Part shown: positions 777 through 22,120 of the stretch, piece after piece | How the letters are laid out: each line of letters begins with the position of its first letter | Position numbering within the stretch: position 1 is the first letter of the stretch | Source: a virus | Taxonomy: Duplodnaviria; Caudoviricetes | Reading direction: 5' to 3' (one strand) | IMG/VR virus record: IMGVR_UViG_3300009031_000221 | Location: 224,001 to 288,000 of that record | DNA length: 64,000 bases | Notes under the pieces: model-generated | Told to the model about the DNA's origin: nothing | The model's database searches: none | The model's input: only the letters and a program-made list of their open reading frames with translations | Translations under genes and position numbers: made by a program

Positions 777-854
777 TGGTGACCTTGGGGGGATTTGAAC
801 CCCACGTTCTCAGCTTGAAAGGCTGGTGTCCTAACCGGATTAGACGACAAGGCC
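777..854 (-). tRNA. tRNA-Glu(TTC)
   Basis: Loop CT-TTC-AA; CCA encoded. Confidence 0.92.
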
Positions 855-869
855 GGTGCTATGACGGCT

Positions 870-1139
870 TCATGCCGCCTTGATATGTTCCCGTTGGGCA
901 AGAATCGCCTTGAGGCGATCCTGGTAATCCCTGAAGGGGGTCATCAGTGCCGTGAACTCATCCGGAGTTCCCTGAATGTATTCTCCGCAGCAGTCGCAGA
1001 CGAGGTGCGCCCGGTAGCGGCAGGTCCACCGACGGGACACCTTCATGATGTGAAGCAAGTTCTTGGTATTCCGCTTCACCAACATCTCATCGGGGAGGAT
1101 GGTCAAGCTACCTGGGAAAGGTTGTACTGTTCTTGGCAT
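870..1139 (-). CDS. Hypothetical protein, 89 aa (CDCC motif)
   Basis: ORF fills the gap between RNA genes on the coding strand. Confidence 0.45.
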   Translation of the reverse strand: MPRTVQPFPGSLTILPDEMLVKRNTKNLLHIMKVSRRWTCRYRAHLVCDCCGEYIQGTPDEFTALMTPFRDYQDRLKAILAQREHIKAA

Positions 1140-1167
1140 GACCCCTCCTGTTCACAAGTATCGTTAG

Positions 1168-1305
1168 TGCCGCCCCTTGGATTCGAACCAAGATGTGCAG
1201 GTTCACCGAATCGCCAGTTGTCACACGGCAAAGCCGTGAAGGAAGTGGTGTAACTTACCGAACTAGACGGTTCCCCACAACCCTTACCGTTAGGGCGAAA
1301 GCGAC
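1168..1305 (-). ncRNA. tRNA-like RNA with the anticodon loop replaced by a ~75-nt irregular hairpin
   Basis: Acceptor GTCGCTT/GGGCGGC, D arm GCCC-TAACGGTAA-GGGT, T arm CTTGG-TTCGAAT-CCAAG; insert between the anticodon-stem halves. Confidence 0.65.
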
Positions 1306-1315
1306 ATTGACCTAG

Positions 1316-1388
1316 CGTGCCTAGCAGGACTCGAACCTGCAATCTCTTCCTTCGGAGGGAAGTGCCTTATCCATTGGGCTATAAGCAC
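1316..1388 (-). tRNA. tRNA-Arg(CCG)
   Basis: Loop CT-CCG-AA; ends G73-CTA. Confidence 0.9.
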
Positions 1389-1707
1389 ATTTGACCGGAA
1401 TAGTGTTGCCAATTCCCAATGTCACCATCAGGAGTCACCGGTCGATGAGGGTATTACACGCGGTGTGGGTTATAGCCAAGTCCCTAGACTGGATGTACCA
1501 CTCGGGTCCTCTTTATTAGGTTTGTCATCCCCTTTCGGGTTTAGCCTACAATGACAGCTACATTGAACGGATTTGATCCCACTTTACTTTTCCTATGATA
1601 TTGCACATCTGAAAAGGTGGGTCGGATACCGTTTTTCCCGCTGTGTCTATCCTAGACCAATCTTGCGATCGGCTTTACGGAATACCCTTCAGCGCGAAGC
1701 TGAAGGA

Positions 1708-1781
1708 TGGTGGCCCCTGAGGGAATCGAACCCCCGAAAGCAGCGTGTAAAGCTACCGTCTTACCACTAAACGAAAGAGCC
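1708..1781 (-). tRNA. tRNA-Val(TAC)
   Basis: Loop TT-TAC-AC; CCA encoded. Confidence 0.88.
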
Positions 1782-1790
1782 ATAACCTTA

Positions 1791-2190
1791 GGTGGATCCG
1801 GCGGGAGTCGAACCCGCGTCCGAAGACACATCAACAAGCCTTCTACGTGCGTAGCCTCTATAATTTACCCCGCTCCCGAAGGGTTGGGCTGACTCTGAAA
1901 TCCCCAGATAGAGACACGGGTAAATCAGAACAGGATCTTTGCTATCTGTCAACTTCATGATCCTACCCCGCTAGCACGGGCAAGCCATTATTCCATCCTG
2001 TTTCAGCCTTGCCACCCAATGGTCACTGGTGGGACTGTCACTAACGCTGTGTATTAAGCAGCGGCGGCGAAAGAAGTGAATTCAACGTTGTCGTTGGCAT
2101 TTACTTTTGTGCTTACTTGTTAACCCGGCCAACAAGCTCCGGGGCACGCAAACTCACCTCAGTTGCCCCCGTCGAAACCGGGACGGACCC
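1791..2190 (-). ncRNA. ssrA: tmRNA, tag (A)ANDNVEFTSFAAAA*
   Basis: 5' GGGTCCG...TTCGACGGGG; 3' GCGGGTTCGACTCCCGCCGGATCCACC; G3:U70 alanine pair; resume context AAGTAAAT-GCC AAC GAC AAC...GCT GCT TAA. Confidence 0.95.
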
Positions 2191-2236
2191 AAGGACGGTC
2201 AATGACCCGGGACGCACCCGGAATGACCAAAGACAC

Positions 2237-2310
2237 TGGAGCGGAATACGGGACTCGAACCCGTTTAGCCAGCTTGGAAGGCTGGAGCCCAACCCATGGG
2301 CCAATTCCGC
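2237..2310 (-). tRNA. tRNA-Gly(TCC)
   Basis: Loop CT-TCC-AA; CCA encoded. Confidence 0.9.
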
Positions 2311-2620
2311 ATACGATTTCAAGGACATCACAAAGGTGTGCTATTACGCCAAATGCTCTACGGGTCTTGCCAGACATTGTACCTATCCTATCCCATACTT
2401 TCAGAACTTAGTTCCTGGGCTGCGCCCCCGAAACGTATCTGGCAAACTGTACTTGTCCTTCCCCGAACGATATCGCCTAGTCCCTGGGCGGGTAGTAAAT
2501 CTATCGTTTTGCAACTCATTATAGGATGGCTGCCGCTAGGCCCACCTCCCTATGTGATTGTCCTTACTGCAGCAACGCGAAGTCCCTGCATGTTCAGCCA
2601 GTCGCAACCAGCTTCATCCT

Positions 2621-2648
2621 ATCTACGCACTATCGAGGAAAAGTAAGT
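2621..2648 (-). promoter_or_regulatory. Promoter motif copy 2
   Basis: CTTAC-N15-CGTAG. Confidence 0.75.
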
Positions 2649-2656
2649 CCCCCGAG

Positions 2657-2731
2657 GGTAGGCTTGATGGGATTTGAACCCATGACATCTACTATGTGAA
2701 AGTAGCGCTCTAACCGCTGAACTACAAGCCT
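2657..2731 (-). tRNA. tRNA-Val(CAC)
   Basis: Loop TT-CAC-AT. Confidence 0.9.
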
Positions 2732-2735
2732 ATCG

Positions 2736-2805
2736 GGAGGCGCCTGTGAGAATCGAACTCACCTACCAAGTTTTGCAGACTTGGGCCTTCCCAGAAGAAA
2801 GCGCC
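2736..2805 (-). tRNA. tRNA-Cys(GCA), short D arm
   Basis: Loop CT-GCA-AA; U73. Confidence 0.85.
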
Positions 2806-2811
2806 ATTTTC

Positions 2812-2907
2812 GGTACGCCGTGTGGGGATCGAACCCACCTGAACCATCTACCCTTTCGACCGTTTATAAGACGGAGGGGATACCAGCGCATTTGGTATCC
2901 CGGGTAT
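2812..2907 (-). tRNA. Atypical tRNA, anticodon TAT (Ile), 7-bp D stem and long extra region
   Basis: CCGT-CTTATAA-ACGG arm; GATACCA/TGGTATC D stem; T arm GTGGG-TTCGATC-CCCAC; bulged acceptor. Confidence 0.6.
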
Positions 2908-2937
2908 GTCTGTATGAACCATTCACATTCTCCTCTC

Positions 2938-3012
2938 GGTAGGGGCGGAGGGATTTGAACCCCCGACCAGACCGTTATGAGCGGCCAGCTCTAACCGCTG
3001 AGCTACACCCCC
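2938..3012 (-). tRNA. tRNA(CAT), Ile2-like or Met
   Basis: Loop CT-CAT-AA; body resembles lysidine tRNA-Ile2. Confidence 0.85.
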
Positions 3013-3020
3013 AATTTTCA

Positions 3021-3093
3021 GTTGCTGTGGGCGGGATCGAACCGCCGACAACCAGGATATGAATCTGGCGCTCTACCAACTGAGCTACACAGC
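3021..3093 (-). tRNA. tRNA-Met(CAT), elongator-like
   Basis: Loop TT-CAT-AT. Confidence 0.85.
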
Positions 3094-3309
3094 AAACGTG
3101 CCCCACGGGGCATTGTCTCACCTTTCCGTATAGGATGCAACCCCTATATCATACCCATCTTTGTTTTGTGTGCCTTATCGCACTACATCGTGGGCAATGT
3201 CCAATTCCGTGAACGGTATTCTCCTTGACTCGATTTGGGATTGCGTATACCACTTGTTGAGGTTTCCGATGAAACCCCAAGATGCACATCACCTTTCCCA
3301 AATCCCACT

Positions 3310-3663
3310 TCATACCTGTGAGGGATACTTCCGTTGAAGTACCCGCAGTTGTTCTCGTTCCAAATCTTCGGCCCGTTTGCGTCGGGCTTCCGTATCCTTC
3401 GCAAGCTTGGCACCCTTGGCGTCTTTGACTTCTTGTACTAGGACTGCCAAGTCCGTAACAATTTTCTCAACCATTTCGAATTCTACAATTTCCGCATCCG
3501 CATAATTCGCGTAATGGTGTGACGAAGGCCACATTCCCGCCAAGTGCGTTTTGATGTGCCCCAAGGATGACCATGTCTTCCCACGGGTTGTCCATCGGGG
3601 CATTGGTCCACCTGACGAAAACAGGTTCGTAGTGCCTTTCTTGCGGATCTTGTAAACCTTCAT
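3310..3663 (-). CDS. Hypothetical protein, 117 aa
   Basis: ORF with RBS (GGAG) and a coiled-coil C-terminus. Confidence 0.7.
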   Translation of the reverse strand: MKVYKIRKKGTTNLFSSGGPMPRWTTRGKTWSSLGHIKTHLAGMWPSSHHYANYADAEIVEFEMVEKIVTDLAVLVQEVKDAKGAKLAKDTEARRKRAEDLEREQLRVLQRKYPSQV

Positions 3664-3681
3664 CGAACATCTCCTACAAAC

Positions 3682-3756
3682 GGCTGGGGTGGAAGGAGTC
3701 GAACCTTCAAATCCCTGGGTCAGAACCAGGTGCGGTTGCCATTTTGCTACACCCCA
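3682..3756 (-). tRNA. tRNA-Gln(CTG)
   Basis: Loop TT-CTG-AC. Confidence 0.88.
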
Positions 3757-3772
3757 ATCAGGAGCAATTTCA

Positions 3773-3846
3773 TGGTAGGGGTGGAAGGATTCGAACCTTC
3801 ATAGCGGGGACCAAAATCCCGCGTCCTGCCTTTGGACGACACCCCC
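3773..3846 (-). tRNA. tRNA-Gln(TTG)
   Basis: Loop TT-TTG-GT; CCA encoded. Confidence 0.85.
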
Positions 3847-3895
3847 GTCATAAGTGTTCAAGAACACCTATTTAGTGAACAAAGCTCCTACCTAG

Positions 3896-3968
3896 TGCGC
3901 CGGGAGGGGCTCGAACCCTCGACCAATAGATTAAAAGTCTACTGCTCTACCAACTGAGCTACCAGCAC
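3896..3968 (-). tRNA. tRNA-Lys(TTT)
   Basis: Loop CT-TTT-AA; ends A73-CTA. Confidence 0.92.
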
Positions 3969-4483
3969 TTCTCTACTTCATCGTATTCATACAAGGTATC
4001 GCTGTCAATCCCTGCCTTCTCTTCCCCTTGCGGTTCCCTCGCCTTGTCCATACGCCTACCGCAAACGATTAGCGTATTCCTCCTGTCTGCTTCGTAGGCG
4101 AGAAGCTCACGTTGTAGCAGATGTTGGAAGAATCCAGGTGTACCACAAGCCGTGCCCCCCGTGTTGCACCCAACGTATGCAACCACACTCGCCCGCTCGA
4201 GGATCTCGACAAGACCGTCGATGGCACGACTGTTTGTTGGCCATGCAACGAAGGCCACATCCACCGAGTCCATGAAATCCGCGAAGTACCCATGGATCAC
4301 CTCGATTTGTGGATGCTTCCGCATCCGTGATATTTCCTTGTCCAAAGCCACCGCACGAGTAGCCCCAAGGGAAATGATGTATCGAGACCATTCTCCCGAC
4401 CCGGCACCTAAGTCTGTCACGACCCGGTTCCGAATGAATGGGATCAAGGTTTCCTTTTGCTTGTCGGTTAACCCACCAAACAC
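3959..4483 (-). CDS. SAM-dependent methyltransferase-like protein
   Basis: VTDLGAGSG motif I followed by AVALD. Confidence 0.65.
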   Translation of the reverse strand: MFGGLTDKQKETLIPFIRNRVVTDLGAGSGEWSRYIISLGATRAVALDKEISRMRKHPQIEVIHGYFADFMDSVDVAFVAWPTNSRAIDGLVEILERASVVAYVGCNTGGTACGTPGFFQHLLQRELLAYEADRRNTLIVCGRRMDKAREPQGEEKAGIDSDTLYEYDEVEKCW

Positions 4484-4502
4484 AGATCACCTCATCCGAG
4501 TG

Positions 4503-4530
4503 ATCTACGCACTTGCTGCCAGAAGTAAGT
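4503..4530 (-). promoter_or_regulatory. Promoter motif copy 3
   Basis: CTTAC-N15-CGTAG. Confidence 0.75.
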
Positions 4531-4534
4531 CTGG

Positions 4535-5286
4535 CTAGATGATTCGGAGGACGATGGCAGTGATATTGTCGTTCCCGCCATTCGTATTTGCCTGTCGAAT
4601 CAATTCGTAGACCGCCTGCTTGGGATCGGGATTCGATTCCATGATTCGCAGGATCTCATCGTCTTCGACTTCCCCAGACAAGCCATCCGAACACAGCAAG
4701 TACATGTCCCCAGACTGGGCATCGATCGTCATGATCGGCACCTTGACGGAATCACTCAACCCACAGGCCTGTGTGATGATGTTCTTATGCGGGCACGTGG
4801 CTACCTGTTCCTTGGTGATATACCCTGCATCGAGGTAATGCTGTACTGCCGAATCTTGGTCAACTGATCCAATGACCCGTCCCGCAGTCGATAGATACGG
4901 CTATCCCCCACATGGCCAACCGTGACGTTGTCTTCCCCAACCATCAAGGCAACAACGGTCGTGCCCATGCGATTGACGCGAACATTCCCCTCTGACATGT
5001 TCTTGGAGAAGATCTCAAAGTTCGCCCAATGAATGCACCCATGGATCAGGTTCTCATTGGGGGTCAAGCCCGATTGAACTGACCAAGGGGCTACGGCTTC
5101 CGGATCCGCCAATGCACTTAGAGTCCGTTGGAACGTATCGACAAGCATCTGAGAGGCCACTTCCCCGTCGATATGTCCGCCCATCCCATCCGCGACAACA
5201 AACACCCTATCGGCAATGAGAAGATTGTCCTCATTGTGAGGGCGCCTTTTACCTACATCCGTTTGACCGGCAACTTCGTACTTCAT
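4535..5286 (-). pseudogene. PP2C-family Ser/Thr phosphatase, frameshifted near 4855
   Basis: N-half TDVGKRRPHNED, VADGMGGH, HVGDSR; C-half LLCSDGL, GGNDNIT. Frame changes where QLTKDHS is expected. Confidence 0.85.
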
Positions 5287-5322
5287 GTGAGGCCTCCGAT
5301 ACTTGAGCGGATAGGGGATCTA

Positions 5323-5790
5323 TCAGACGGGCATGAGTTCGCGAACCAGGGTTAAGGTTTCGCCCAACCAGTTCGTCCCCTGCCACCGACTGCGATCCTC
5401 TGCACGGGGATCGTCACGGGGCAAACCAATTCCCCAGACTTTGTCGTAAGGGCTAGCCTCAACCAGGGTCGTACCCTTGGTTGCCAACAGGAGAACCTTC
5501 AGGTCAGGGTTTTGCGCGTACTTCGCCATGCTGGCACGGAATACAACATCCTTGGCGACACTGTTCCACTTGTCCGCATTGAACCCTTTGACGGAACGCC
5601 CAAGGCGCTTCATCTCCTTGGGATCCGAGGTTGCCATGATCATGAGGGCGGCGTCCTTGTCATCAAAGAGCCTTGCCTTCTCAACCATCATGTATTGTTC
5701 AGCACACGTGTAGTGGTATCCGTCAATCTTGAATCTTGACGGATACCACTGGCTGAAAGGTCCGTCCCAGAAGAATGTGAACTTTTCCAT
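5323..5790 (-). CDS. NADAR family protein
   Basis: FSQWYPS, CAEQYMM.KA.LF.D, KRLGR.V.GF, LVEASPYDKVWGIG, G.NWLG. Confidence 0.92.
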   Translation of the reverse strand: MEKFTFFWDGPFSQWYPSRFKIDGYHYTCAEQYMMVEKARLFDDKDAALMIMATSDPKEMKRLGRSVKGFNADKWNSVAKDVVFRASMAKYAQNPDLKVLLLATKGTTLVEASPYDKVWGIGLPRDDPRAEDRSRWQGTNWLGETLTLVRELMPV

Positions 5791-10772: not shown

Positions 10773-12179
10773 CTACGCTTTGAAAGTCAAGATAGGCCTC
10801 ATCTTTGCCACCTTCGACAATATACCCGCCGTTACCTGGGATTGTATCACGGGACCAATGTCCTTGTACGCGGCGGGCGCTTCCTCGATTTTACGCTCAT
10901 ACCGCAATGAAATGCAATCCACACCGTCTAACCCAAGGTTGCCTTCGCGTTTCATGTCCACTCGGGATTGACTTCGACCCGCACCGTGACTTGCCGACAG
11001 CAAGTGTTCTTCCGAACCCAACCCCTTGCAAACATACGATGCTGACCCCATGGACCCAGGAATGAGAAGCCAATCTCCCAGGTTCGCCGGGCAAGCCCCC
11101 TTGCGTTGAATCCATGTCCCCGAATGTTCCAAAGTGATGTTGTGCGGAATGTCTGTAATCATCGGGCACTCCAGGTCGTCCCCGAACACTTGTCGCATTC
11201 TCAATCGGGCAATCTCGGCAATCAACATGCGATTGACCCAGGCATAGTTGACAGCCGTAGCTTCTGCCGTCAAGTAATCCAGTTGACCTTCATCCTCCAG
11301 CAATGGAAACATGTGGCTAGTAGGGAATGGACGCTTGGTTGCTTCCCAGGCCTTACGTGCCCGAGTTTGAGCGTTCTGCCCAACATACAACCCGACGAAT
11401 CGGGAACCCGTATGCGCCATGAACCCGACTTGCCCTACCTTGATTCCCAGGGCATACGCCGCATGCCTATCTAGGATTTCTTCTACGACCTGGAATTCTA
11501 CGAAGTGGTTGCCCCCTCCAATAGTTCCCAACCCGTCATCCCGAATGATCTTGGATCCTATGCCGTCTACCAAGCCTTGAGGGGCGTACTTAACATCTCC
11601 ACGGGCAATGTTTGTGTACTGAACTCGATCACACTCCTCGTGCAACTGCTCAATGCGGGAAGCCTGCGTCATGCCATGCTTCCAACCATCATTGTCCTGG
11701 GCCTCGAGCCACCCAAGTAATCCGTCCGTGAACATCGCCTTTTGGACGCTTACGGTTTGTGCCACATCTCGAGTGCCAAAGAAGTAATCCCCCTTCAGCA
11801 ATTCGACCAAGGCGTCCCGCTTTGCCAGGAACTGATCAATGGTCAAATCCGTGAGGTGCAATCTCATGCCACAGTTGATGTCCGTACCAATGGCTGCCGG
11901 AATCAGAAACTGTGTTTGAACTACGGAACCAATGGCAACGCCCGCATCTCCAGGATGGAAATCCGGTGTGGCACAACATCGAGTGACGCCTTCCAAAGAA
12001 GCCAGATTGGCTAGCTGTAGAAGGGCTTTGTTCTCAACCGGCAATTCGTCTGGAAGCAATACATCCGCATAGGGAAGGTGGTCATGATTGGCAATACGAA
12101 CTTGCCAACCGCCATCGACCTTACGAACATCGAGGCCTTCTTTGACTAGAGCCTTTAGAAGGCGATCGTGATTTGCCAT
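10773..12179 (-). CDS. rtcB: RtcB RNA 2',3'-cyclic phosphate/5'-OH ligase
   Basis: PDFHPG, GTDINCGMRL, GGGNHFVE, HTGSR, PHN, RKGA, PGSMG, SHGAGR, EEAPAAYK. Confidence 0.96.
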   Translation of the reverse strand: MANHDRLLKALVKEGLDVRKVDGGWQVRIANHDHLPYADVLLPDELPVENKALLQLANLASLEGVTRCCATPDFHPGDAGVAIGSVVQTQFLIPAAIGTDINCGMRLHLTDLTIDQFLAKRDALVELLKGDYFFGTRDVAQTVSVQKAMFTDGLLGWLEAQDNDGWKHGMTQASRIEQLHEECDRVQYTNIARGDVKYAPQGLVDGIGSKIIRDDGLGTIGGGNHFVEFQVVEEILDRHAAYALGIKVGQVGFMAHTGSRFVGLYVGQNAQTRARKAWEATKRPFPTSHMFPLLEDEGQLDYLTAEATAVNYAWVNRMLIAEIARLRMRQVFGDDLECPMITDIPHNITLEHSGTWIQRKGACPANLGDWLLIPGSMGSASYVCKGLGSEEHLLSASHGAGRSQSRVDMKREGNLGLDGVDCISLRYERKIEEAPAAYKDIGPVIQSQVTAGILSKVAKMRPILTFKA

Positions 12180-12180
12180 G

Positions 12181-12762
12181 TCATGCCAGCCGTGTCACCG
12201 TCAACGGTGTGATTTGAAGGCTGCGCTTGGTGCCCTTGCGGAGGAACTGCTGGACAACGATCGCCATCTGCGATGCCGCGAGTCCGTGGAAGGGCAGGTT
12301 CTCCCCGTCCTCACACGTTGCTTGTCCAGGTGCCCCTTCCTCATCTGGAACGAAGTGCTCATCCCAAACAACCCGGGCAAACGTACCATCCGCCGACAAA
12401 GCGCCATGCAAACATGGGATGCCATTGGGCTGAACGAACCCTTGGATGATGCGGCGTGCCTCTGCATTGTCCGTGCAGTCAATGACTAGCCCTGCGCCTC
12501 CCAGGATGACCTGTACGTTGTCCTTGGTCAGTTGGTGCGGGGTAGCATCGATCTTGATGCCGAACAGCCCTGCCATCGCTTGCTGAAGCCCCAGTGCCTT
12601 GTTGCGTGCCTTGCTCAGCCCCGTGTGGAACTGAGACATGATGTTCTTCTGCTCGACGCGATCGAAGTCAACAACCTTCAGCCCTTGCTTCCAGTTGCGA
12701 CCGAAGAGAACCAGGTGAGAACCCAATGCCCCTACGCCAACGATTACGATTTGTCCCGCCAT
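12181..12762 (-). CDS. ThiF/E1-like adenylyltransferase
   Basis: IVGVGALGS, VDFDRVEQKN, VIDCTDN, C-terminal ATCE cysteine; abuts rtcB. Confidence 0.9.
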   Translation of the reverse strand: MAGQIVIVGVGALGSHLVLFGRNWKQGLKVVDFDRVEQKNIMSQFHTGLSKARNKALGLQQAMAGLFGIKIDATPHQLTKDNVQVILGGAGLVIDCTDNAEARRIIQGFVQPNGIPCLHGALSADGTFARVVWDEHFVPDEEGAPGQATCEDGENLPFHGLAASQMAIVVQQFLRKGTKRSLQITPLTVTRLA

Positions 12763-12822
12763 GATTGATACCTCAGTTGGGCGCATAGGCACCATGAATC
12801 AGGTCATCCGTGACCTTGCATC

Positions 12823-15164: not shown

Positions 15165-15461
15165 TCACCCGAAGGCTAGATCACAACCAAACGGCGTCTT
15201 GGGGCGCAGGAAGATGCGGTTGTCCGGAACTTCATCGTTGGACGGGAAGCGATCCACAACGAAGTCCGCGAAGTTCGCGTTCTGGTCGGCGGGAATACCC
15301 GGGATGCCGTTCTGCACAGCCTCCTGAGCGAGGCGGCGAAGATCATCCGCGCCAAGGTCGAAGGGAACAGCCTCAACGAGATCTCCGTTGTTGCCTGCCC
15401 AAGTGATGTTGAAACGTGCCTCGTTCTGAGCAAAAAGACGGTCTGCCATATTGTCCTCCAT
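15165..15461 (-). CDS. Ubiquitin-like (beta-grasp) protein ending ...RPKTPFG-CDLAFG
   Basis: Small, beta-rich, Gly-terminated protein directly downstream of JAB; ARFNITWAG.NGDL and FVVDRF pattern. Confidence 0.72.
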   Translation of the reverse strand: MEDNMADRLFAQNEARFNITWAGNNGDLVEAVPFDLGADDLRRLAQEAVQNGIPGIPADQNANFADFVVDRFPSNDEVPDNRIFLRPKTPFGCDLAFG

Positions 15462-15465
15462 CTAT

Positions 15466-15870
15466 CTAGCGGGAAATCGCCCGCAGTTCTTCTAGGTCTT
15501 CCAGAATCAGTTCTCGCGGAAACCCCATGGCTTCCCCGTTGCATGTATCCAAGGCCCCATAGCCTTGGTGTTCTTCGTCGTAGTACATGAAGACGAACGT
15601 CTTCACATCTGTGAAAGTTGCGATAGGCCACATCAGGTTTCGCCCGAGGCCTAGTTCAATCGCACGGAACGTAGTCACGTCCGTATATGAACACCAGGAC
15701 TCCCCATCCCACGGATGAGTATGAGCCACCCCGCCAAGGTTATGGCGATTATCCCAGATGATTTCCCACAGGTTGCGGGAGTCCGGAATAGCTCCGCCGG
15801 TCCGACCCTTTGGCACATGCCAATGGAGGGTCTTACCTGCCTTGTCGAATACCAATGCGTTCTCCATCAT
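15466..15870 (-). CDS. JAB/JAMM metalloprotease
   Basis: N-terminal E, then HTHP-x6-CS-xx-D (HTHPWDGESWCSYTD). Confidence 0.85.
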   Translation of the reverse strand: MMENALVFDKAGKTLHWHVPKGRTGGAIPDSRNLWEIIWDNRHNLGGVAHTHPWDGESWCSYTDVTTFRAIELGLGRNLMWPIATFTDVKTFVFMYYDEEHQGYGALDTCNGEAMGFPRELILEDLEELRAISR

Positions 15871-15879
15871 ATCGGAACC

Positions 15880-16162
15880 TCGTTACAGTGACGTTGCATG
15901 CCCCCATGCATTACCCGCAGGCCGGAGTATCATATTTCACTCCAGGATCCCCACAAACGTATGGGTTTCGAACCCTCCGTCACGTTCATTCGCCCTTTCG
16001 GGGCTCGAATCATATGCACGGTTAGATACCACCCTATCCGTGCAAATCCAGTGAGGGGGCTCTTGGTAAAGTCCCCCCAACCCTGGTAACTCCCTATGTT
16101 ATTGGGGCCGGTTCGGGTTCCGGCACTTCACTGCAGCTAACCGCAGCGCCCAAATTCGATTG
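15880..16162 (-). ncRNA. Structured ncRNA candidate C2
   Basis: No ORF; ~70-nt core at 16085-16153 is paralogous to 16492-16565. Confidence 0.55.
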
Positions 16163-16164
16163 TG

Positions 16165-16572
16165 GGGCTATCACGGCTTACCCACCAACGCACTCCATCC
16201 GTTCTTGTGTGAGTTCTCCCACAGAAGTACCGATTTGAGGCTGGGTTCCGGTTATCCCGGTCACACTCATGGAAGGCGTTCCATGCCAGCTTAGGCCCGA
16301 TCCCGGCCATACGTGCAGCGTGTAGGTTCGGTCAACCCCACGTTTCAATGAGCGCTGGTAGCTTAGGTCTCTACGTTGCAGTCACGCTGCAATCCGCCTA
16401 CCAGTCTTACCTAGACCTTAGACCCCATCGTATTTTGGACACGGTTTCCCGTGTCACACACTTCGTCCACACCTATTGAGCTAGGATAGAAGCTAACTCC
16501 CGATGTTATTGGGGACGGTACGGGTTCCGTGATTTCGCTGAGGGGTTTAGCCTGCAACGCCCAATATTGTTG
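16165..16572 (-). ncRNA. Structured ncRNA candidate C1
   Basis: 5' core shared with C2, with a compensatory stem change (ACGG/CCGT vs CCGG/CCGG). Confidence 0.55.
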
Positions 16573-16579
16573 ACAGGAC

Positions 16580-17700
16580 GTACCCATCATCGTATTTGCC
16601 CCCTGTTTGAGCTTATGTCATCCGGGGGCGCAATGACGTAATTTGCTCTTTACCTATACCCAGTTGTCTCCCGTAGGAGATCGTATTTATGGCTGTCCCG
16701 AATGTAAAACTAGGACTATCGCCAGCCACATGCGACCCTTTTTCCCACCCACTACGGTGAGTTCACCTCGTCAGAAGGGCTCCGACTAGGGGCAGTGAAC
16801 CCCTGGTATGTTGCCTCATACGTTATGAGGTCGTTCTGGATGGAGGCTAGGGATCACACCCCCCTAGCATGTCCCGCCCACGTTCGACGGGTCTATTCAA
16901 CGGCGGTCGCCGTGCCCCAACCCTAGTAGACAACCCCGCTCGAGGGTGTCGTCGATTGTTCATATGAATCGGACTGCCAGCCCTGTTCGGCTCCGCAAAG
17001 GGGTGCCTACTAGGGGCCAGTGATCCCGACCCATATGTCCCCGACTGGGAGCTACCCAGCCGGATGGCTTATGCATGCCTGCATTCGCCAAAGTTCTATC
17101 GTGTTGGGCACTGACCGGGATGGACGGGCCTCACACCCGCAACCACCCCGTCTTGCCGACGGGTCCTCTGCAAATCTCTTTTCCCTCCAGGTAGCCTCAC
17201 CTTCGGTACTAAGAAATCCGGGATCCTCCTGAACGGGCCTTGGCCAAGGTTTGCCGTTAATTCGGATTGCCTACTTGCAGCTACACGCCGGGTCAATGCC
17301 CAACAGTTCAAGGCAGAACAGGATCCAGAAGCAACCGGTTTGCCCTCCGGAGGATCCTCACAGTGTTACTCTCTAGCGGGGGTTCGATCTTTTGGACGGG
17401 CAAGTCCTCAACCGCCGTACCGCCTCGGACAAAGTGGGGCTTTCAGTTCAGGGCACATTTTCAGCCCCTACCCTATCTTCCGCACCCTGTTCTGCCGTGA
17501 ACATGTTCTGCCGAGAGTGAAATGAGGGAGCTTTACGGCATCCACACGGTATTGGCTCCTTTTACAGGGAGCACGAATAGGGCACTGCAGACCCTTTGAC
17601 ACCGCAGTAAAAAGCATCTCCCGTCTGCCACGACCCCTTGCGGGCCACTTCACTCTCGGCAGAACTTCTAGAGCCTGAGGCGGTTCGCAACCGCCCTCTT
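16580..17700 (-). ncRNA. Large ornate ncRNA B (~1.1 kb, GOLLD-like?)
   Basis: Starts at a promoter motif; no ORF; 17-bp inverted repeat 17504-17520/17649-17665; shares CCCGTCGAACGTGG and a GTATAGGTAAAG...GCAAATACG 3' domain with RNA A. Confidence 0.65.
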
Positions 17701-17705
17701 GTTCC

Positions 17706-17734
17706 ATCTACGCGGCAGCCCCTGAAGGTAAGCC
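17706..17734 (-). promoter_or_regulatory. Promoter motif copy 9
   Basis: CTTAC-N15-CGTAG. Confidence 0.75.
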
Positions 17735-17737
17735 CCG

Positions 17738-18480
17738 CCACGGTCGTATTTGCCTCCCTGAGTGGGCTTCCAGCATCCGGGAGGCATGATGGATAGAAAA
17801 CGCCCTTTACCTATACACGGTAATGCCCCACGTCTGCGGCATCGTTCTGCTGTGGCACTAGGGCTGCGTCCCTAGCATGGCTCGCGTCCACGTTCGACGG
17901 GCCACTACAGCAAGAGTGCTGTAACCACGGCTTGGTTGACCATCCCCGTGCGGGGGATATCAGTCGTATTTGCGTGGCAACGGGTTGGCTACCGTATCAA
18001 TCCTGGCCATTGCAGACCCGAATCCCGCCATCGCAATTACCCCCACCACATGGGCGACGGCTGCGATACGGTGCCTCGGTTTAACGCCGAGGCTCGATCC
18101 ACACACTGTTTAGGGCTTGTGTCCGCACAGGACGGCCCTTCGTTCTTTGACCAGCCCAGGGTTCGTCCTGAACCTCCGCCCTGTTGGGCGGCGTGCTTCT
18201 TACACCATCTGATCGCAACTAGGCATCTTCGGGTAGCGAGCCAGAAGATGTAGGTGCTGGTTTCGAACCCAACACCTTGTTCCCCATCGTTCGGGGGGAA
18301 GGGGCCGAAGCCCCCGCCCCAAGTCCTTGGATTTGCCCAACCCCCATTACACTGCTTCAGCTACCAAAGCCCGCTTTGCAGTCCCGACCTTCAAGGGTGT
18401 CGTCCCCTAACATCCTTTACGCGATTTGGCATGGACACAGAGTCGAACCCTGTTCGGAAAGCTCGCAGCCTCCCGTCCAT
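17738..18480 (-). ncRNA. Large ornate ncRNA A (~740 nt, GOLLD-like?)
   Basis: Bracketed by two promoter motifs; dense hairpins; 3' domain covaries with RNA B. Confidence 0.65.
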
Positions 18481-18485
18481 GATCC

Positions 18486-18514
18486 ATCTACGCATGAACC
18501 ACCTGAAGTAAGCC
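18486..18514 (-). promoter_or_regulatory. Promoter motif copy 10
   Basis: CTTAC-N15-CGTAG. Confidence 0.75.
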
Positions 18515-18531
18515 CAGGGTTCAGATCTTTT

Positions 18532-18650
18532 TCAGTCGTCGTCATCCCAGTCATCCCGGTCGTCCCGATCAACGCCCCAGTCGGGGTTCGCACCAGGACC
18601 AGGGTCGCCCGCAACGTGACGCCACACAACCAGTTTGCCACCACGTTGGA
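18532..18650 (-). pseudogene. Orphan 3' end of the 21122-22120 gene
   Basis: Encodes GGKLVVWRHVAGDPG...DWDDDD*, versus EGKLVVWRHVAGDPG...DWED*. Confidence 0.7.
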
Positions 18651-18668
18651 CATCCAACTTTCGGATAT

Positions 18669-19919
18669 TTACAGGCTTTCCCGAACCAATGGATCCCCGC
18701 CGCAGACTTTGCATGGCACCAGCGTCTTCAAGGATTCTTCGGTGACGGTGACGTTTTGTTTGGTGCCTATGGTTGCCACGTATCGGCATTCAGGAGCGTG
18801 AACAACCGTGGAATGCGATGATTTTACCACTAGATTTCCGATGATGTCAGCCAAGGTCAAGCGGGCTTCCACTTTTACCAAGTTGGTGATCTGACGATCT
18901 TCATCATCCAACCCAAGGATCTCATTGATCAGATCTGTGCTTCGCGGGTGGCCGTACCTAGCAGCTTTGCGTTGTTGGATTTCATTCAAGTCTTTCCACA
19001 TGCCCATGCCGGATGCTTTTGCCGATGCTTCTAGTCTGTTGTAAGTGTCCAGCACGAAAGGTTCGATTGGGAACACGTCTAAGACTTCTGCACACCCTTC
19101 TTCCAGAAGGGTTTCACCCATCAATCTTCCATCCACTAGGATGTGGGCGGTCAAGCGTCCATACCGATCGTAGACCCATCCTTGTTGAACTTGTTCGGCA
19201 TCCAAGCGGATGGAAATGTTGGTGGCTTGACGAAGGATGCGTTCCGCCATGTGGGTTGCCTGCAATCCGTAGTGCCCAATGGATTTGGTTGGGTGGCACG
19301 TCTCCGGGCAGTCAAAACCAACAAGGCGAACCTTGAAGTTTTCACCCGTGGATGGGATAGCCACCCGAACCGTATCGCCGTCAATGATGTCCGTCAAAGA
19401 ACAGGGGACGGCCTTTGTTCCAAATTTCGGGGAAGGCCATTTGTTCTGGGTCACAAGCCCCAAACATTCCTGCTTGTACTTGGCAGTCCGCTCTTGAACT
19501 TGTGCATCCCGATCTTTTCCGATGTCGTCCCCAAACATGGTGGCTACCGTAGCCACTAGTGGTTTCTGTGCAAACAGCTCTGCCCTACGGACCTGGTTTT
19601 CCCGCATCTTGGTTAGGTACTTGCGAGCCCTCGATGAATTTCCGTTTGTGATTGCTTGGATTTGACGCGATGTGTTGTTACCCAACAATGGTTCTAGATC
19701 GTCCCGTGCAATACCAAGACCTGCAAGTACGGTTTGTGTCGCTCGTTCTTGCTGTTGCAGTTGCCGACCAAAGGCTTTCAGGTCTTCCCCTTTGGCTTTC
19801 AGGTCTTCTTCCACACCACGCATTCGCTTCCCCCATGTTGTGAACGGGATCAGGTGTGGCAAAACCAAAAGCACAAGGATCCCAAGCCAAGCTAGTGTTC
19901 CCCATGTTGCGTATTCCAT
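18669..19919 (-). CDS. Thermonuclease (SNase) with N-terminal membrane anchor and coiled coil
   Basis: IIDGDTV, VRLVGFDCPE, DRYGRLTAHI, ETLLEEGCA, AK..GMGMW; C-terminal Ada-like H..ECR...C..C. Confidence 0.87.
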   Translation of the reverse strand: MEYATWGTLAWLGILVLLVLPHLIPFTTWGKRMRGVEEDLKAKGEDLKAFGRQLQQQERATQTVLAGLGIARDDLEPLLGNNTSRQIQAITNGNSSRARKYLTKMRENQVRRAELFAQKPLVATVATMFGDDIGKDRDAQVQERTAKYKQECLGLVTQNKWPSPKFGTKAVPCSLTDIIDGDTVRVAIPSTGENFKVRLVGFDCPETCHPTKSIGHYGLQATHMAERILRQATNISIRLDAEQVQQGWVYDRYGRLTAHILVDGRLMGETLLEEGCAEVLDVFPIEPFVLDTYNRLEASAKASGMGMWKDLNEIQQRKAARYGHPRSTDLINEILGLDDEDRQITNLVKVEARLTLADIIGNLVVKSSHSTVVHAPECRYVATIGTKQNVTVTEESLKTLVPCKVCGGDPLVRESL

Positions 19920-19959
19920 GACATTCGTCCTTGCGGGGCATCATCCGTGCCCATGTCTT

Positions 19960-19988
19960 ATCTACGCGGGGCGGACAGAAAGTAAGCC
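19960..19988 (-). promoter_or_regulatory. Promoter motif copy 11
   Basis: CTTAC-N15-CGTAG; its TAG is the stop codon of the upstream HNH gene. Confidence 0.75.
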
Positions 19989-21125
19989 TTTGGCATCAAC
20001 TTTCCGTGAAGTTAACGCTTCCTCGGGTGCCATACCTCGTGCTAGACGACTTCGTATCCAAGCAGCACTTAGGTCCACTTCCTCGATCCAGGCTGCCAAG
20101 CACTGAGTCCTACCCCATGCCTTGATCATCAGGTTATCGTTTCGGTTACGCATCTGTTCCTGATTTGTGGCCCAACGAACATTCCCTGGGTGATACCCCT
20201 TATCGTTGTCTATTCGGTCAAGAGTGTGTTTCGCAGATGGGGCATGTCCAACGTGTTCCAGGAAAGATGCAAAGCCGCCTGGGGATTTCCACCCTTCATG
20301 TAGGGTTCGTTTTCCATCACGGCATCTCCGCACCATCTGATACCAATGTTTGTATTCCTTGGATGCCGATGGAGTATGTGCCCGTGAATCTCTACCTTGT
20401 ATGGATTCAGGCGTAGGGTCTCTACGAAGATTCGGGGTGGACACAATTTGTTCTGGAGTCCAGCCAAGGGCCAACCTTGCAGCCAAAGTGTTCGTTTTGA
20501 TGCCGATCTCTTCGGCCCATGCTGTCAGACTTTGCGTCCTCCCGAGGGCTTGTAGAAATCTGGTTTTGGATGTGTTTCTAGCCTGTTCTTTAGGGGATGC
20601 CCAACGGACATTCCCTGGCACATACCCCAAGTTATTGTCAATCCTATCCAGGGTGTTGTGCCCTTTTGGAGACACACCTACATGATCCAGAAAGGATACA
20701 AATCCGTCATGCCCAACCCACTCAGGGTGTACGACAACACCTTTGCCACCGTATTCTGGGTAGGCTGTAGAGGTGTGCCTGAGACATCGATCCAGCATGC
20801 CCTGCCAGGATTTGTATTCCGGGGTGTCTGACTTCCCATGTGTGCTTTCCCAACCGGCCGCCTGGAGTCTCTCAGGTGACCAGCAACCACATGAGGTGGT
20901 GTTCCCGGATTGAATGTGGTCCAAACGGGTTACGAATTGCCGTCCACAGTCGCATTGCACCGTGACTTCGTATCTCTTTGTCCCTGCTCTCCTGATGGAT
21001 TCACTCAGGACAAGAATCCTGCCAAATCGTTCGCCTTTCCATGATTTCTTGTTTCTCATGTGGACAAGGTAACACAATCTCCCTTTCGTGTCCAACATTC
21101 GCACAATCAAATATGTGGCGTTCAA
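19962..21125 (-). CDS. Phage homing endonuclease with tandem HNH-type domains (probable start 21059)
   Basis: GERFGR, CDCG...SCGC, and two copies of TLDRIDN..GY.PGNVRWA...Q.RN. Confidence 0.87.
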   Translation of the reverse strand: MNATYLIVRMLDTKGRLCYLVHMRNKKSWKGERFGRILVLSESIRRAGTKRYEVTVQCDCGRQFVTRLDHIQSGNTTSCGCWSPERLQAAGWESTHGKSDTPEYKSWQGMLDRCLRHTSTAYPEYGGKGVVVHPEWVGHDGFVSFLDHVGVSPKGHNTLDRIDNNLGYVPGNVRWASPKEQARNTSKTRFLQALGRTQSLTAWAEEIGIKTNTLAARLALGWTPEQIVSTPNLRRDPTPESIQGRDSRAHTPSASKEYKHWYQMVRRCRDGKRTLHEGWKSPGGFASFLEHVGHAPSAKHTLDRIDNDKGYHPGNVRWATNQEQMRNRNDNLMIKAWGRTQCLAAWIEEVDLSAAWIRSRLARGMAPEEALTSRKVDAKGLLSVRPA

Positions 21126-22120
21126 TCCTCCCAGTCATCTTGATCCCAATCACCACGTCCTCCTGGATCCCCTGCGACATGTCTCCAAACTACGAGTTTT
21201 CCTTCCCGCAGTGCCTCCTGAATTACCGCCGGGAGTGACTCAAGCGTCAGAAGGGTATCGCCTTTTTGCCCTGTGGCATGATCCGTCAAACACACCCCAG
21301 CATCCACGATGCGAAGGTTCATGTCGCATACGCATTCCAACCTACGGGTCATGAAACGGTACTGCACAACCATCTCACCCTTGTTGAAGGCCGGACGGCT
21401 ATCCAGCAATTCCGCACCCGACACTGCCAACGCAGCCCTTGCAGCCGCAGGAAAGTCATGTGCCGCCATTGCACGCCGGCCGGCCCCCGTGCCCATGTTC
21501 TTACGTGCCTCAACCATCTTCTCTTCGGCAATGCGCTTCTTCTCTGCTTCATCCCGAAGGCGCCGACATTCCTTTTCCCAGGCCTCCGCCTTGAGCCGTT
21601 GCGTGGTCAACCAACGGAAAGCAAGATCAAGTGCCGGTGTCACGGCTTGGATATGATCCAGGTTTTCCAATCGATCCTGATATGCCGCCGTGACTTCCAT
21701 CTCAGGCCCTTGCGGGAACTCCTGACGGATGTAACACAGGGCATTTGTTTGAGGGATACGAACCGCAACGGCACGGCTGAACCGATCCATGCCGGCTTCA
21801 ACGAGGAACACTGGAATGGTTTGCTCAATCAACTTGTCAGGGTTGGGATCAACGCGGGCTTGATCCGAGATCAATCGATCCCCTACAAGGTAGCCGCGCA
21901 CAACCTTGAGGCCTTGCTCGAAGTCTGGATCGGGATCAACCTGTGTACGTCCAACCAACGTAGCATCCCTGCCACCTGAGGTCTTGAACTTGTACCATCC
22001 GTGTTCCGGTGGGAGACGACCCTGAATATCCCACGTGCGGTCACGCCAGTAGACCTTGCGGCCCCCAGTCCATGGAAGCGTTCGCTCCGTGTCCGTTTCT
22101 AGTAGGTCTTGCCATCCCAT
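21122..22120 (-). CDS. Conserved hypothetical protein, 332 aa, linked to the Ubl/JAB/E1 genes
   Basis: Clean ORF with globular and coiled-coil parts; Cys motifs RLECVCD and DAGVCL. Confidence 0.8.
   Translation of the reverse strand: MGWQDLLETDTERTLPWTGGRKVYWRDRTWDIQGRLPPEHGWYKFKTSGGRDATLVGRTQVDPDPDFEQGLKVVRGYLVGDRLISDQARVDPNPDKLIEQTIPVFLVEAGMDRFSRAVAVRIPQTNALCYIRQEFPQGPEMEVTAAYQDRLENLDHIQAVTPALDLAFRWLTTQRLKAEAWEKECRRLRDEAEKKRIAEEKMVEARKNMGTGAGRRAMAAHDFPAAARAALAVSGAELLDSRPAFNKGEMVVQYRFMTRRLECVCDMNLRIVDAGVCLTDHATGQKGDTLLTLESLPAVIQEALREGKLVVWRHVAGDPGGRGDWDQDDWED

Follow-up and report, generated by a model that had tools for sequence, protein, structure and literature searches.

Large structured non-coding RNAs (ncRNAs) are rare, and to our knowledge every class solved so far (GOLLD, ROOL, OLE, raiA) showed an unexpected architecture. 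GOLLD and ROOL, which are phage or prophage RNAs, often lie close to tRNA islands and assemble into RNA-only nanocages (bioRxiv 10.1101/2024.12.08.627333), and in the Salmonella rsr-yrlBA-rtcBA operon Y RNAs and messenger RNAs (mRNAs) are carried on one transcript (Chen et al. 2014, PMC4201824; PMC7790460). Here we describe a block without credible open reading frames (ORFs) in a 536-kb phage genome (IMG/VR virus record IMGVR_UViG_3300009031_000221), within a window of 64,000 nucleotides (nt) spanning bases 224001-288000 of that record. The block carries two tandem RNA units, unit 1 (u1) and unit 2 (u2), in an island that also encodes RtcB, a ThiF-type E1 and a Ro60-like candidate protein. It contains structured sense-strand ncRNA elements of new families under phage promoters. 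Our best explanation, held with moderate confidence, is that they form a new set of modular structured RNAs with a narrow distribution, which are probably transcribed as long precursors.

The units resemble GOLLD and ROOL in several respects, i.e., they are phage-encoded, lie in a tRNA-rich region (48 tRNA or tRNA-like matches, one tmRNA and nothing else at gathering scores in a whole-window Rfam search), reach several hundred nt, and contain multi-helix junctions and a possible pseudoknot. Unlike GOLLD and ROOL, they have another junction architecture, their modules are shuffled independently, and they are known from about six phage lineages only. A cmscan search with Rfam 15 (positions 15800-19000, both strands, E ≤ 10, permissive filters) returned no match to GOLLD (RF01998), ROOL (RF03087), OLE, HEARO, raiA, RNase P, 6S, tmRNA, intron, YrlA/Y RNA or tRNA models. 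Its sole matches were at chance level (CRISPR-DR37 with 21.9 bits vs a 40-bit cut-off, mir-890, and IRES_Bip). Nor did the blocks of related phages match GOLLD or ROOL, or reach the gathering score of any Rfam family. Of the two options in the original prediction, membership in the GOLLD class thus falls away, whereas a new class stands, as no described family was matched.

The likeness to the Y RNAs YrlA and YrlB, which are encoded with rsr and rtcBA, lies in the setting (ncRNAs embedded beside RtcB and a candidate Ro60-type protein, and probably co-transcribed with mRNAs), in three domains of unit 2 (A, B and C) whose ends pair in a long stem, and in tRNA-like pieces within the relatives' blocks. 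The differences are the lack of a YrlA match, the size of the elements (domains of 160-200 nt, or parts of far longer units), and the handle ..GAACTYACACG of the phage's own tRNA-like RNAs, which neither unit carries. The full handle motif (CAGTTC...ACTCG ... GAACTYACACG, derived from 11 tRNA-like RNAs of this phage clade) is not present in 16586-18480, and ARAGORN found no tRNA gene in 15400-19000.

As predicted, a promoter motif opens each unit, and this motif is genome-wide. In a whole-genome scan, G[AG]CTTACTT[TC]-N11-GCGTAGAT[AG] occurs at 139 sites with an exact 16-nt spacing from ACTTAC to GTAGAT, vs 3-8 sites for each other spacing. Within the window the sites track gene orientation and stand ahead of tRNA arrays; a promoter-type motif is also kept in related phages at 60-74% protein identity, and the same motif heads the RNA blocks of the related loci L010, L013, L014, L089, L091, L101, and L102. 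The promoter regions of the two units are 76% identical (BLAST). The original claim that the stretch is ORF-free also stands, since the minus strand between 15871 and 18531 has no credible ORF (longest open frames 43-79 amino acids, aa) and small ORFs of both strands gave zero Pfam or PHROGs matches.

Both units finish with a common cassette of ~215 nt that consists of a four-way-junction module, M_X, and a hairpin/pseudoknot block, Y. Sequence checks and BLAST between the units confirmed the two shared minus-strand blocks noticed originally, i.e., CCCGTCGAACGTGG..CATGCTAGGG-loop-CCCTAG (17855-17903 and 16846-16892) and GTATAGGTAAAG...GCAAATACGA (17744-17821 and 16590-16664), with alignments of 64% over 119 nt and 72% over 78 nt (block Y), plus the promoter. 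M_X is made of a hairpin (P0) and a four-way junction. Its helices P0, P1, and P2 covary, and the P3 loop (GAACGUG) and P4 stem (CUAGGG/CCCUAG) show no variation, suggesting that they are recognised by sequence.

Six M_X copies from five phage lineages (two in the window, and those of L013, L087, L101, and L102) score 109-137 bits. In an un-fitted MAFFT alignment of four copies, 93% of the cells are paired and 8 pairs are changed on both sides, vs 3.3 ± 1.4 in shuffled alignments (2 of 500 reach 8) and 1-2 with slid partners. With all six copies fitted to the model, an alignment that leans toward the structure, the values are 94% paired cells and 8 pairs (11 cells) changed on both sides, vs 2.9 ± 1.3 pairs in the shuffles (none of the 500 reaches the observed value). 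For domain B, aligned from three lineages, 90% of the cells are paired and 19 of the 65 pairs are changed on both sides (shuffles, 6.8 ± 2.0; 0 of 500 reach 19), including one hairpin in which all four pairs differ. Both M_X and domain B thus covary among homologues and, judged by these alignments, are new families with conserved, covarying structure in independent lineages. The paired changes originally noted between the two units fared unevenly: the changes in the junction hairpins are genuine, and the orthologues strengthen them, whereas the pseudoknot of block Y is compatible with the two available sequences, which lend it no statistical weight. Block Y has a closing helix (GUAU/AUAC), a hairpin (GCCUCCC/GGGAGGC) with a matched indel, and a candidate loop-to-upstream-strand pseudoknot of six pairs with one compensatory change; 32 of 33 cells of its two-copy alignment are paired, vs 25-47% with slid partners. 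The minus strand is taken as the RNA strand because G-U pairs recur in M_X and because the domain B model (R2) is strand-specific, with 171-230 bits in sense vs 25-45 in antisense (171 vs 25 for the window copy).

Upstream of the cassette the two units have little in common. The 5' body of unit 1 is collinear with L101/L102, L014, and L091, and its M_b hairpin is almost invariant across L014, L087 (two copies), L091, and L101/L102. Unit 2 runs from its promoter through domains A, B, and C to modules M_c and M_X, an insertion, and Y, and it shares the collinear order B, M_c, M_X with L013. Because the body of unit 1 and the module order of unit 2 match different relatives, the units are, on the evidence of these comparisons, paralogous solely in the promoter and the M_X+Y cassette, their 5' bodies being two unrelated families with separate orthologues; of the two divergent paralogs proposed originally, only that shared portion remains. 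Fold energies differ as well. Unit 1 has a z-score of -2.95 on the minus vs -2.27 on the plus strand, and the 5' part of unit 2 (16960-17692, 733 nt) one of -6.69 vs -2.84; these whole-unit folds discriminated where sliding 200-nt z-scores did not. The lengths of ~740 and ~1120 nt are promoter-to-shared-block-end distances between predicted 5' and 3' ends (Table 1).

Table 1 Features of the RNA block and its surroundings (window coordinates), with the related loci that carry the same element
Feature	Position	Strand	In relatives	Remarks
Unit 1 (u1)	17744-18479	minus		~736 nt, predicted start to block Y end; 5' body, M_X, Y
Unit 1 promoter motif	18486-18513	minus		GGCTTACTTC-N11-GCGTAGATG
M_a	18330-18410	minus	L101, L102, L014, L091 (directly downstream of promoters)	conserved 5' elements of the u1 family: GGGGACGACRCCC hairpin and GCGGACTTTGGTAGCCGAA element
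M_b	18108-18147	minus	L014, L087 (twice), L091, L101/L102	hairpin (AAGGGCCGUCCUGUGCGGACACAAGCCC); once in window
M_X copy 1	17835-17977	minus	L013, L101/L102, L087	model R1, 129.6 bits; M_X twice in window
Block Y copy 1	17744-17821	minus	no copy found	Y twice in window
Unit 2 (u2)	16586-17699	minus		~1114 nt, predicted start to block Y end
Unit 2 promoter motif	17706-17733	minus		starts ~10 nt past unit 1 block Y
Domain A	17505-17665	minus	no homologue found	end-paired; inverted-repeat closing helix 20 bp, 95% complementary
Domain B	17300-17506	minus	L010 11562-11770, L013 11198-11400	~200 nt, end-paired, multi-branched; closing helix ~26 bp; once in window
Domain C	17102-17305	minus	no homologue found	end-paired; inverted-repeat closing helix 18 nt, 89% complementary
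M_c	16973-17080	minus	L013	two hairpins and a third helix; once in window
M_X copy 2	16824-16962	minus	L013, L101/L102, L087	model R1, 128.7 bits
Unit-2-specific insertion	16665-16823	minus		~160 nt between M_X and Y
Block Y copy 2	16586-16664	minus	no copy found
Lower block	15871-16585	minus		two ~400-nt units, TTGGGCG...CCCCAAUAACAU; runs into 134-aa gene
134-aa gene	15466-15870	minus		HTH...S..D JAMM-type motif read by eye; no Pfam/NCBIfam match
ThiF-type E1	12181-12795			downstream of ncRNA block
RtcB	10773-12179			downstream of ncRNA block
SNase-domain nuclease gene	18669-19919			upstream flank of ncRNA block
332-aa gene	21122-22120			upstream of ncRNA block
668-aa Ro60-like candidate	23951-25957			upstream of ncRNA block; basis, weak VWA_2 match only

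Within unit 2, domains A (17665-17505), B (17502-17306), and C (17305-17102) fold consecutively with adjacent closing helices (20, 26, and 18 bp), that of domain A being present in minimum-energy and centroid folds alike; with model R2, domains A and C are not detectable as paralogues of domain B. Domains A and B (17306-17665, minus strand) share one 8-bp closing helix (GGCAGAAC/GUUCUGCC), which is oriented oppositely in the two. Its GGCAGAAC copies are separated by 16 nt, so that the domains could also pair with each other in alternative ways. M_c is 71% identical to L013 11763-11874, with three compensatory pairs in one hairpin of this two-sequence comparison. M_X and Y are merely ~20 nt apart in unit 1, and the M_X copy of unit 2 diverges most among the six. 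A diverged 33-nt repeat of the M_c core lies on either side of this copy (16761-16793 and 16985-17017).

The syntenic relatives were located through the conserved upstream 332-aa gene, which has more than 1,100 homologues; in the majority of 72 IMG/VR huge-phage loci it lies next to the 134-aa gene, 10-100 nt away. In the small clade nearest the window phage a promoter-led ORF-free block lies between these two genes, of 1.4 kb in L010 (a 520-kb phage), 2.7 kb in L013, ~1.3 kb in L014, at least 0.78 kb in L091, and ~1.1 kb in L101/L102. L089 carries in this slot (2037-2240) the promoter motif and a 143-nt tRNA-like RNA with a large insert, which suggests that the slot is a general RNA-gene site of the island. 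An all-against-all comparison of the blocks found M_X missing from L010 and L014, and domain B from L014, L087, and L101; L087 itself is a contig without the 332-aa or 134-aa gene, in which the modules adjoin unrelated genes. Judged by this distribution, the modules are autonomous: phages acquire them, lose them, and carry them in new combinations. Such a mosaic is a natural domain-swap experiment that reveals autonomous pieces. The locus enlarges the set of RNAs known from huge phages by at least two covariation-backed families (M_X and domain B) and other conserved modules, placed in a Ro60-like/ThiF-type E1/JAMM-motif/RtcB island.

Searches beyond these loci point to a narrow distribution. 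BLAST with the block as query matched none of 50,697 phage records. In IMG/VR, exact patterns for M_X, M_b, block Y, and the core of the lower units each gave 0 matches, and patterns for M_X and M_b likewise gave 0 in GTDB genomes. Four matches to the domain B closing-helix pattern were treated as chance, having no homology to the block. Models R1 (M_X) and R2 recovered only the known copies from 73 loci and nothing new from 48 complete or partial IMG/VR huge-phage records with the 332-aa gene; a scan of JGI metagenomes for M_X recovered one phage on two contigs (L087 and L088). The identical phage sequence was also found in groundwater metagenome runs, and two other freshwater runs held just near-identical low-depth fragments and no diverged homologue. 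No RNA run was among the sequencing runs listed as holding the phage sequence.

We consider the block to be a non-coding, phage-promoter-driven part of the Ro60-like/ThiF/RtcB island, built of autonomous structured RNA modules of ~80-200 nt. The two promoters would start two long primary transcripts, which probably continue into the lower RNA units and then into the downstream 134-aa JAMM-motif and 98-aa genes. Such read-through is probable because a simple scan of 15400-19000 found no terminator candidate on the minus strand and no further promoter motif lies between 17706 and 15081; the nearest minus-strand site further downstream is at 15081-15054, so that neither the 134-aa nor the 98-aa gene is preceded by its own promoter motif. 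The arrangement would resemble that of the Salmonella operon. Processing stems in rRNA operons and in the early transcript of phage T7 are cut by RNase III, and the closing helices of domains A-C (consecutive domains, each closed by its own flanks in a near-perfect duplex of 18-26 bp) look like excision stems of this type, a likeness of shape only. The block may therefore yield, as stable products, several end-paired RNAs of medium size and not two giants. The case for long precursors of separable RNAs draws on the independent evolution of the modules, the string of end-paired domains in unit 2, and the lack of a terminator-like site. The RNAs are most likely partners, scaffolds, or decoys for the RNA-handling proteins of the island, a role suggested by position only, since the slot of a sister phage holds a promoter-led tRNA-like RNA. 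We infer transcript extent, processing, and function throughout.

Several observations weigh against this reading. The covariation comes from 3-6 related sequences, and RNase III processing and any link to the Ro60-like protein or RtcB are ones that we infer solely from helix length and gene neighbourhood. The order of the modules is partly kept, with M_b ahead of M_X in the window, L087, and L101, and B, M_c, and M_X in the same order in the window and L013; a conserved order is also expected of one long functional RNA. The simple terminator scan would miss non-canonical terminators, and if these exist the units could be discrete RNAs that end at block Y, which closes both of them and stops 10 nt before the next promoter, suggesting a defined 3' end. 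Like GOLLD, moreover, the units have a conserved 3' part and a variable 5' part (bioRxiv 10.1101/2024.12.08.627333). Each unit might be one intact large structured RNA (~0.74 and 1.1 kb) of GOLLD/ROOL-like kind that may oligomerise, with M_X+Y as conserved functional core and the 5' bodies as variable accessory regions. An own promoter for each unit, the common 3' cassette terminated by block Y, collinearity with the orthologues across 0.6-1.6 kb, and the tRNA-rich surroundings would all suit such RNAs, which we nevertheless regard as unlikely: no Rfam large-RNA family matches, the modules vary independently (M_X is not in L014 or L010, and Y not in any relative), the fold of unit 2 consists of separate closed domains and lacks supported long-range pairs, no conserved palindromic loop for kissing contacts was found, and no terminator was found past block Y.

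A bolder form of this alternative, which we hold to be improbable, makes u1 and u2 full-length RNAs of ~0.7-1.1 kb from an unseen class, in which M_X+Y would be an assembly or docking core. They might then assemble into an RNA-only multimer (a u1/u2 heteromer being one possibility), or serve as a scaffold onto which the Ro60-like ring, RtcB, and ubiquitin-like conjugation enzymes are recruited during infection.

The block might also be a long structured 5' leader that controls the 134-aa JAMM-motif and 98-aa genes, with alternative pairings acting as a switch. The run from 17706 to the gene start at 15870, free of promoter motifs and sense-strand terminators, and the alternative pairings open to domains A and B through their shared GGCAGAAC/GUUCUGCC helix would fit such a leader. 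However, a length of 1.8-2.6 kb would be extraordinary, most relatives carry the same gene behind the short gap and without such a leader, the modules of L087 adjoin unrelated genes, and tandem promoters with duplicated cassettes would be unexpected, so that this too is improbable. We give slightly less credence still to debris, or selfish mobile fragments of RNA genes (decayed tRNA-like or other), gathered in a permissive slot and no longer serving the phage. The patchy, mosaic presence among close relatives, the T-arm fragments within their blocks, and a homing-endonuclease/nuclease insertion directly upstream in the window phage would fit decay; yet compensatory changes keep the helices across lineages that are just 61-80% identical, loops and stems of M_X and M_b are invariant, promoters are kept at the head of each block, and the fold energy is strongly biased to the sense strand. 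That the stretch encodes small proteins, in the several 43-79-aa minus-strand frames or under another genetic code, is scarcely credible, as these frames match nothing in Pfam or PHROGs, no stop-codon reassignment yields a long minus-strand frame, the flanking genes translate normally with table 11, and homologous modules in relatives differ by indels of 1-2 nt, i.e., not multiples of three.

The genes around the ncRNA block are on the minus strand. Between the 332-aa gene and unit 1 (18532-21125) lie a 387-aa gene with no Pfam match, the SNase-domain gene, and a duplicate of the 332-aa gene's 3' end, an orphan at 18532-18645 that aligns with the true gene end in L010. Together they look like an insertion specific to the window phage. 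Among relatives of the SNase gene none is syntenic with the window locus, and a search with RtcB gave no close relative in IMG/VR.

The lower ~400-nt units (TTGGGCG...CCGGAACCCGAACCGGCCCCAAUAACAU) are the most widely conserved element of the blocks, being present twice in L010 and also in L013, L014, and L087. The tRNA-like handle motif occurs with one mismatch at 16206-16214 and 16319-16327 of this lower part. An 8-mer, AAAUACGA, has five copies in RNA sense (16428, 16590, 16681, 17744, and 17964), mostly at module boundaries, where ~0.03 would be expected in 16428-17972; the 536-kb genome has 26 sites on both strands. L013 and L014 hold their sole locus copy inside the RNA block, and L010 has one copy in the block and a second outside it at 18485. 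The 8-mer could be a processing or protein-binding signal.

A strict T-arm search found none in the window's block, and canonical T-arms are present in the RNA blocks of L010, L013 (three), and L091. In L101 the segment that follows M_X (3279-3306) consists of a canonical T-arm, the 3' strand of an acceptor (7 nt), and ACCA, with the contig ending 5 nt on; this segment also gives a weak match to a tmRNA 3' end (E = 4e-4). We rejected a reading of P0 as a CRISPR-like solitary repeat: the P0 of unit 1 resembles the type I-E repeat of L087, yet the P0 stems covary, and the window genome has neither Cas6e nor array-like repeated k-mers. L087 itself encodes type I-E cas7, cas5, and cas6e with a 15-repeat CRISPR array (822-5744; array at 3454-4355), and an orphan CRISPR repeat (5712-5744) lies inside its RNA block, ~180 nt upstream of M_X. 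The Cas6e of that phage might process its RNA.

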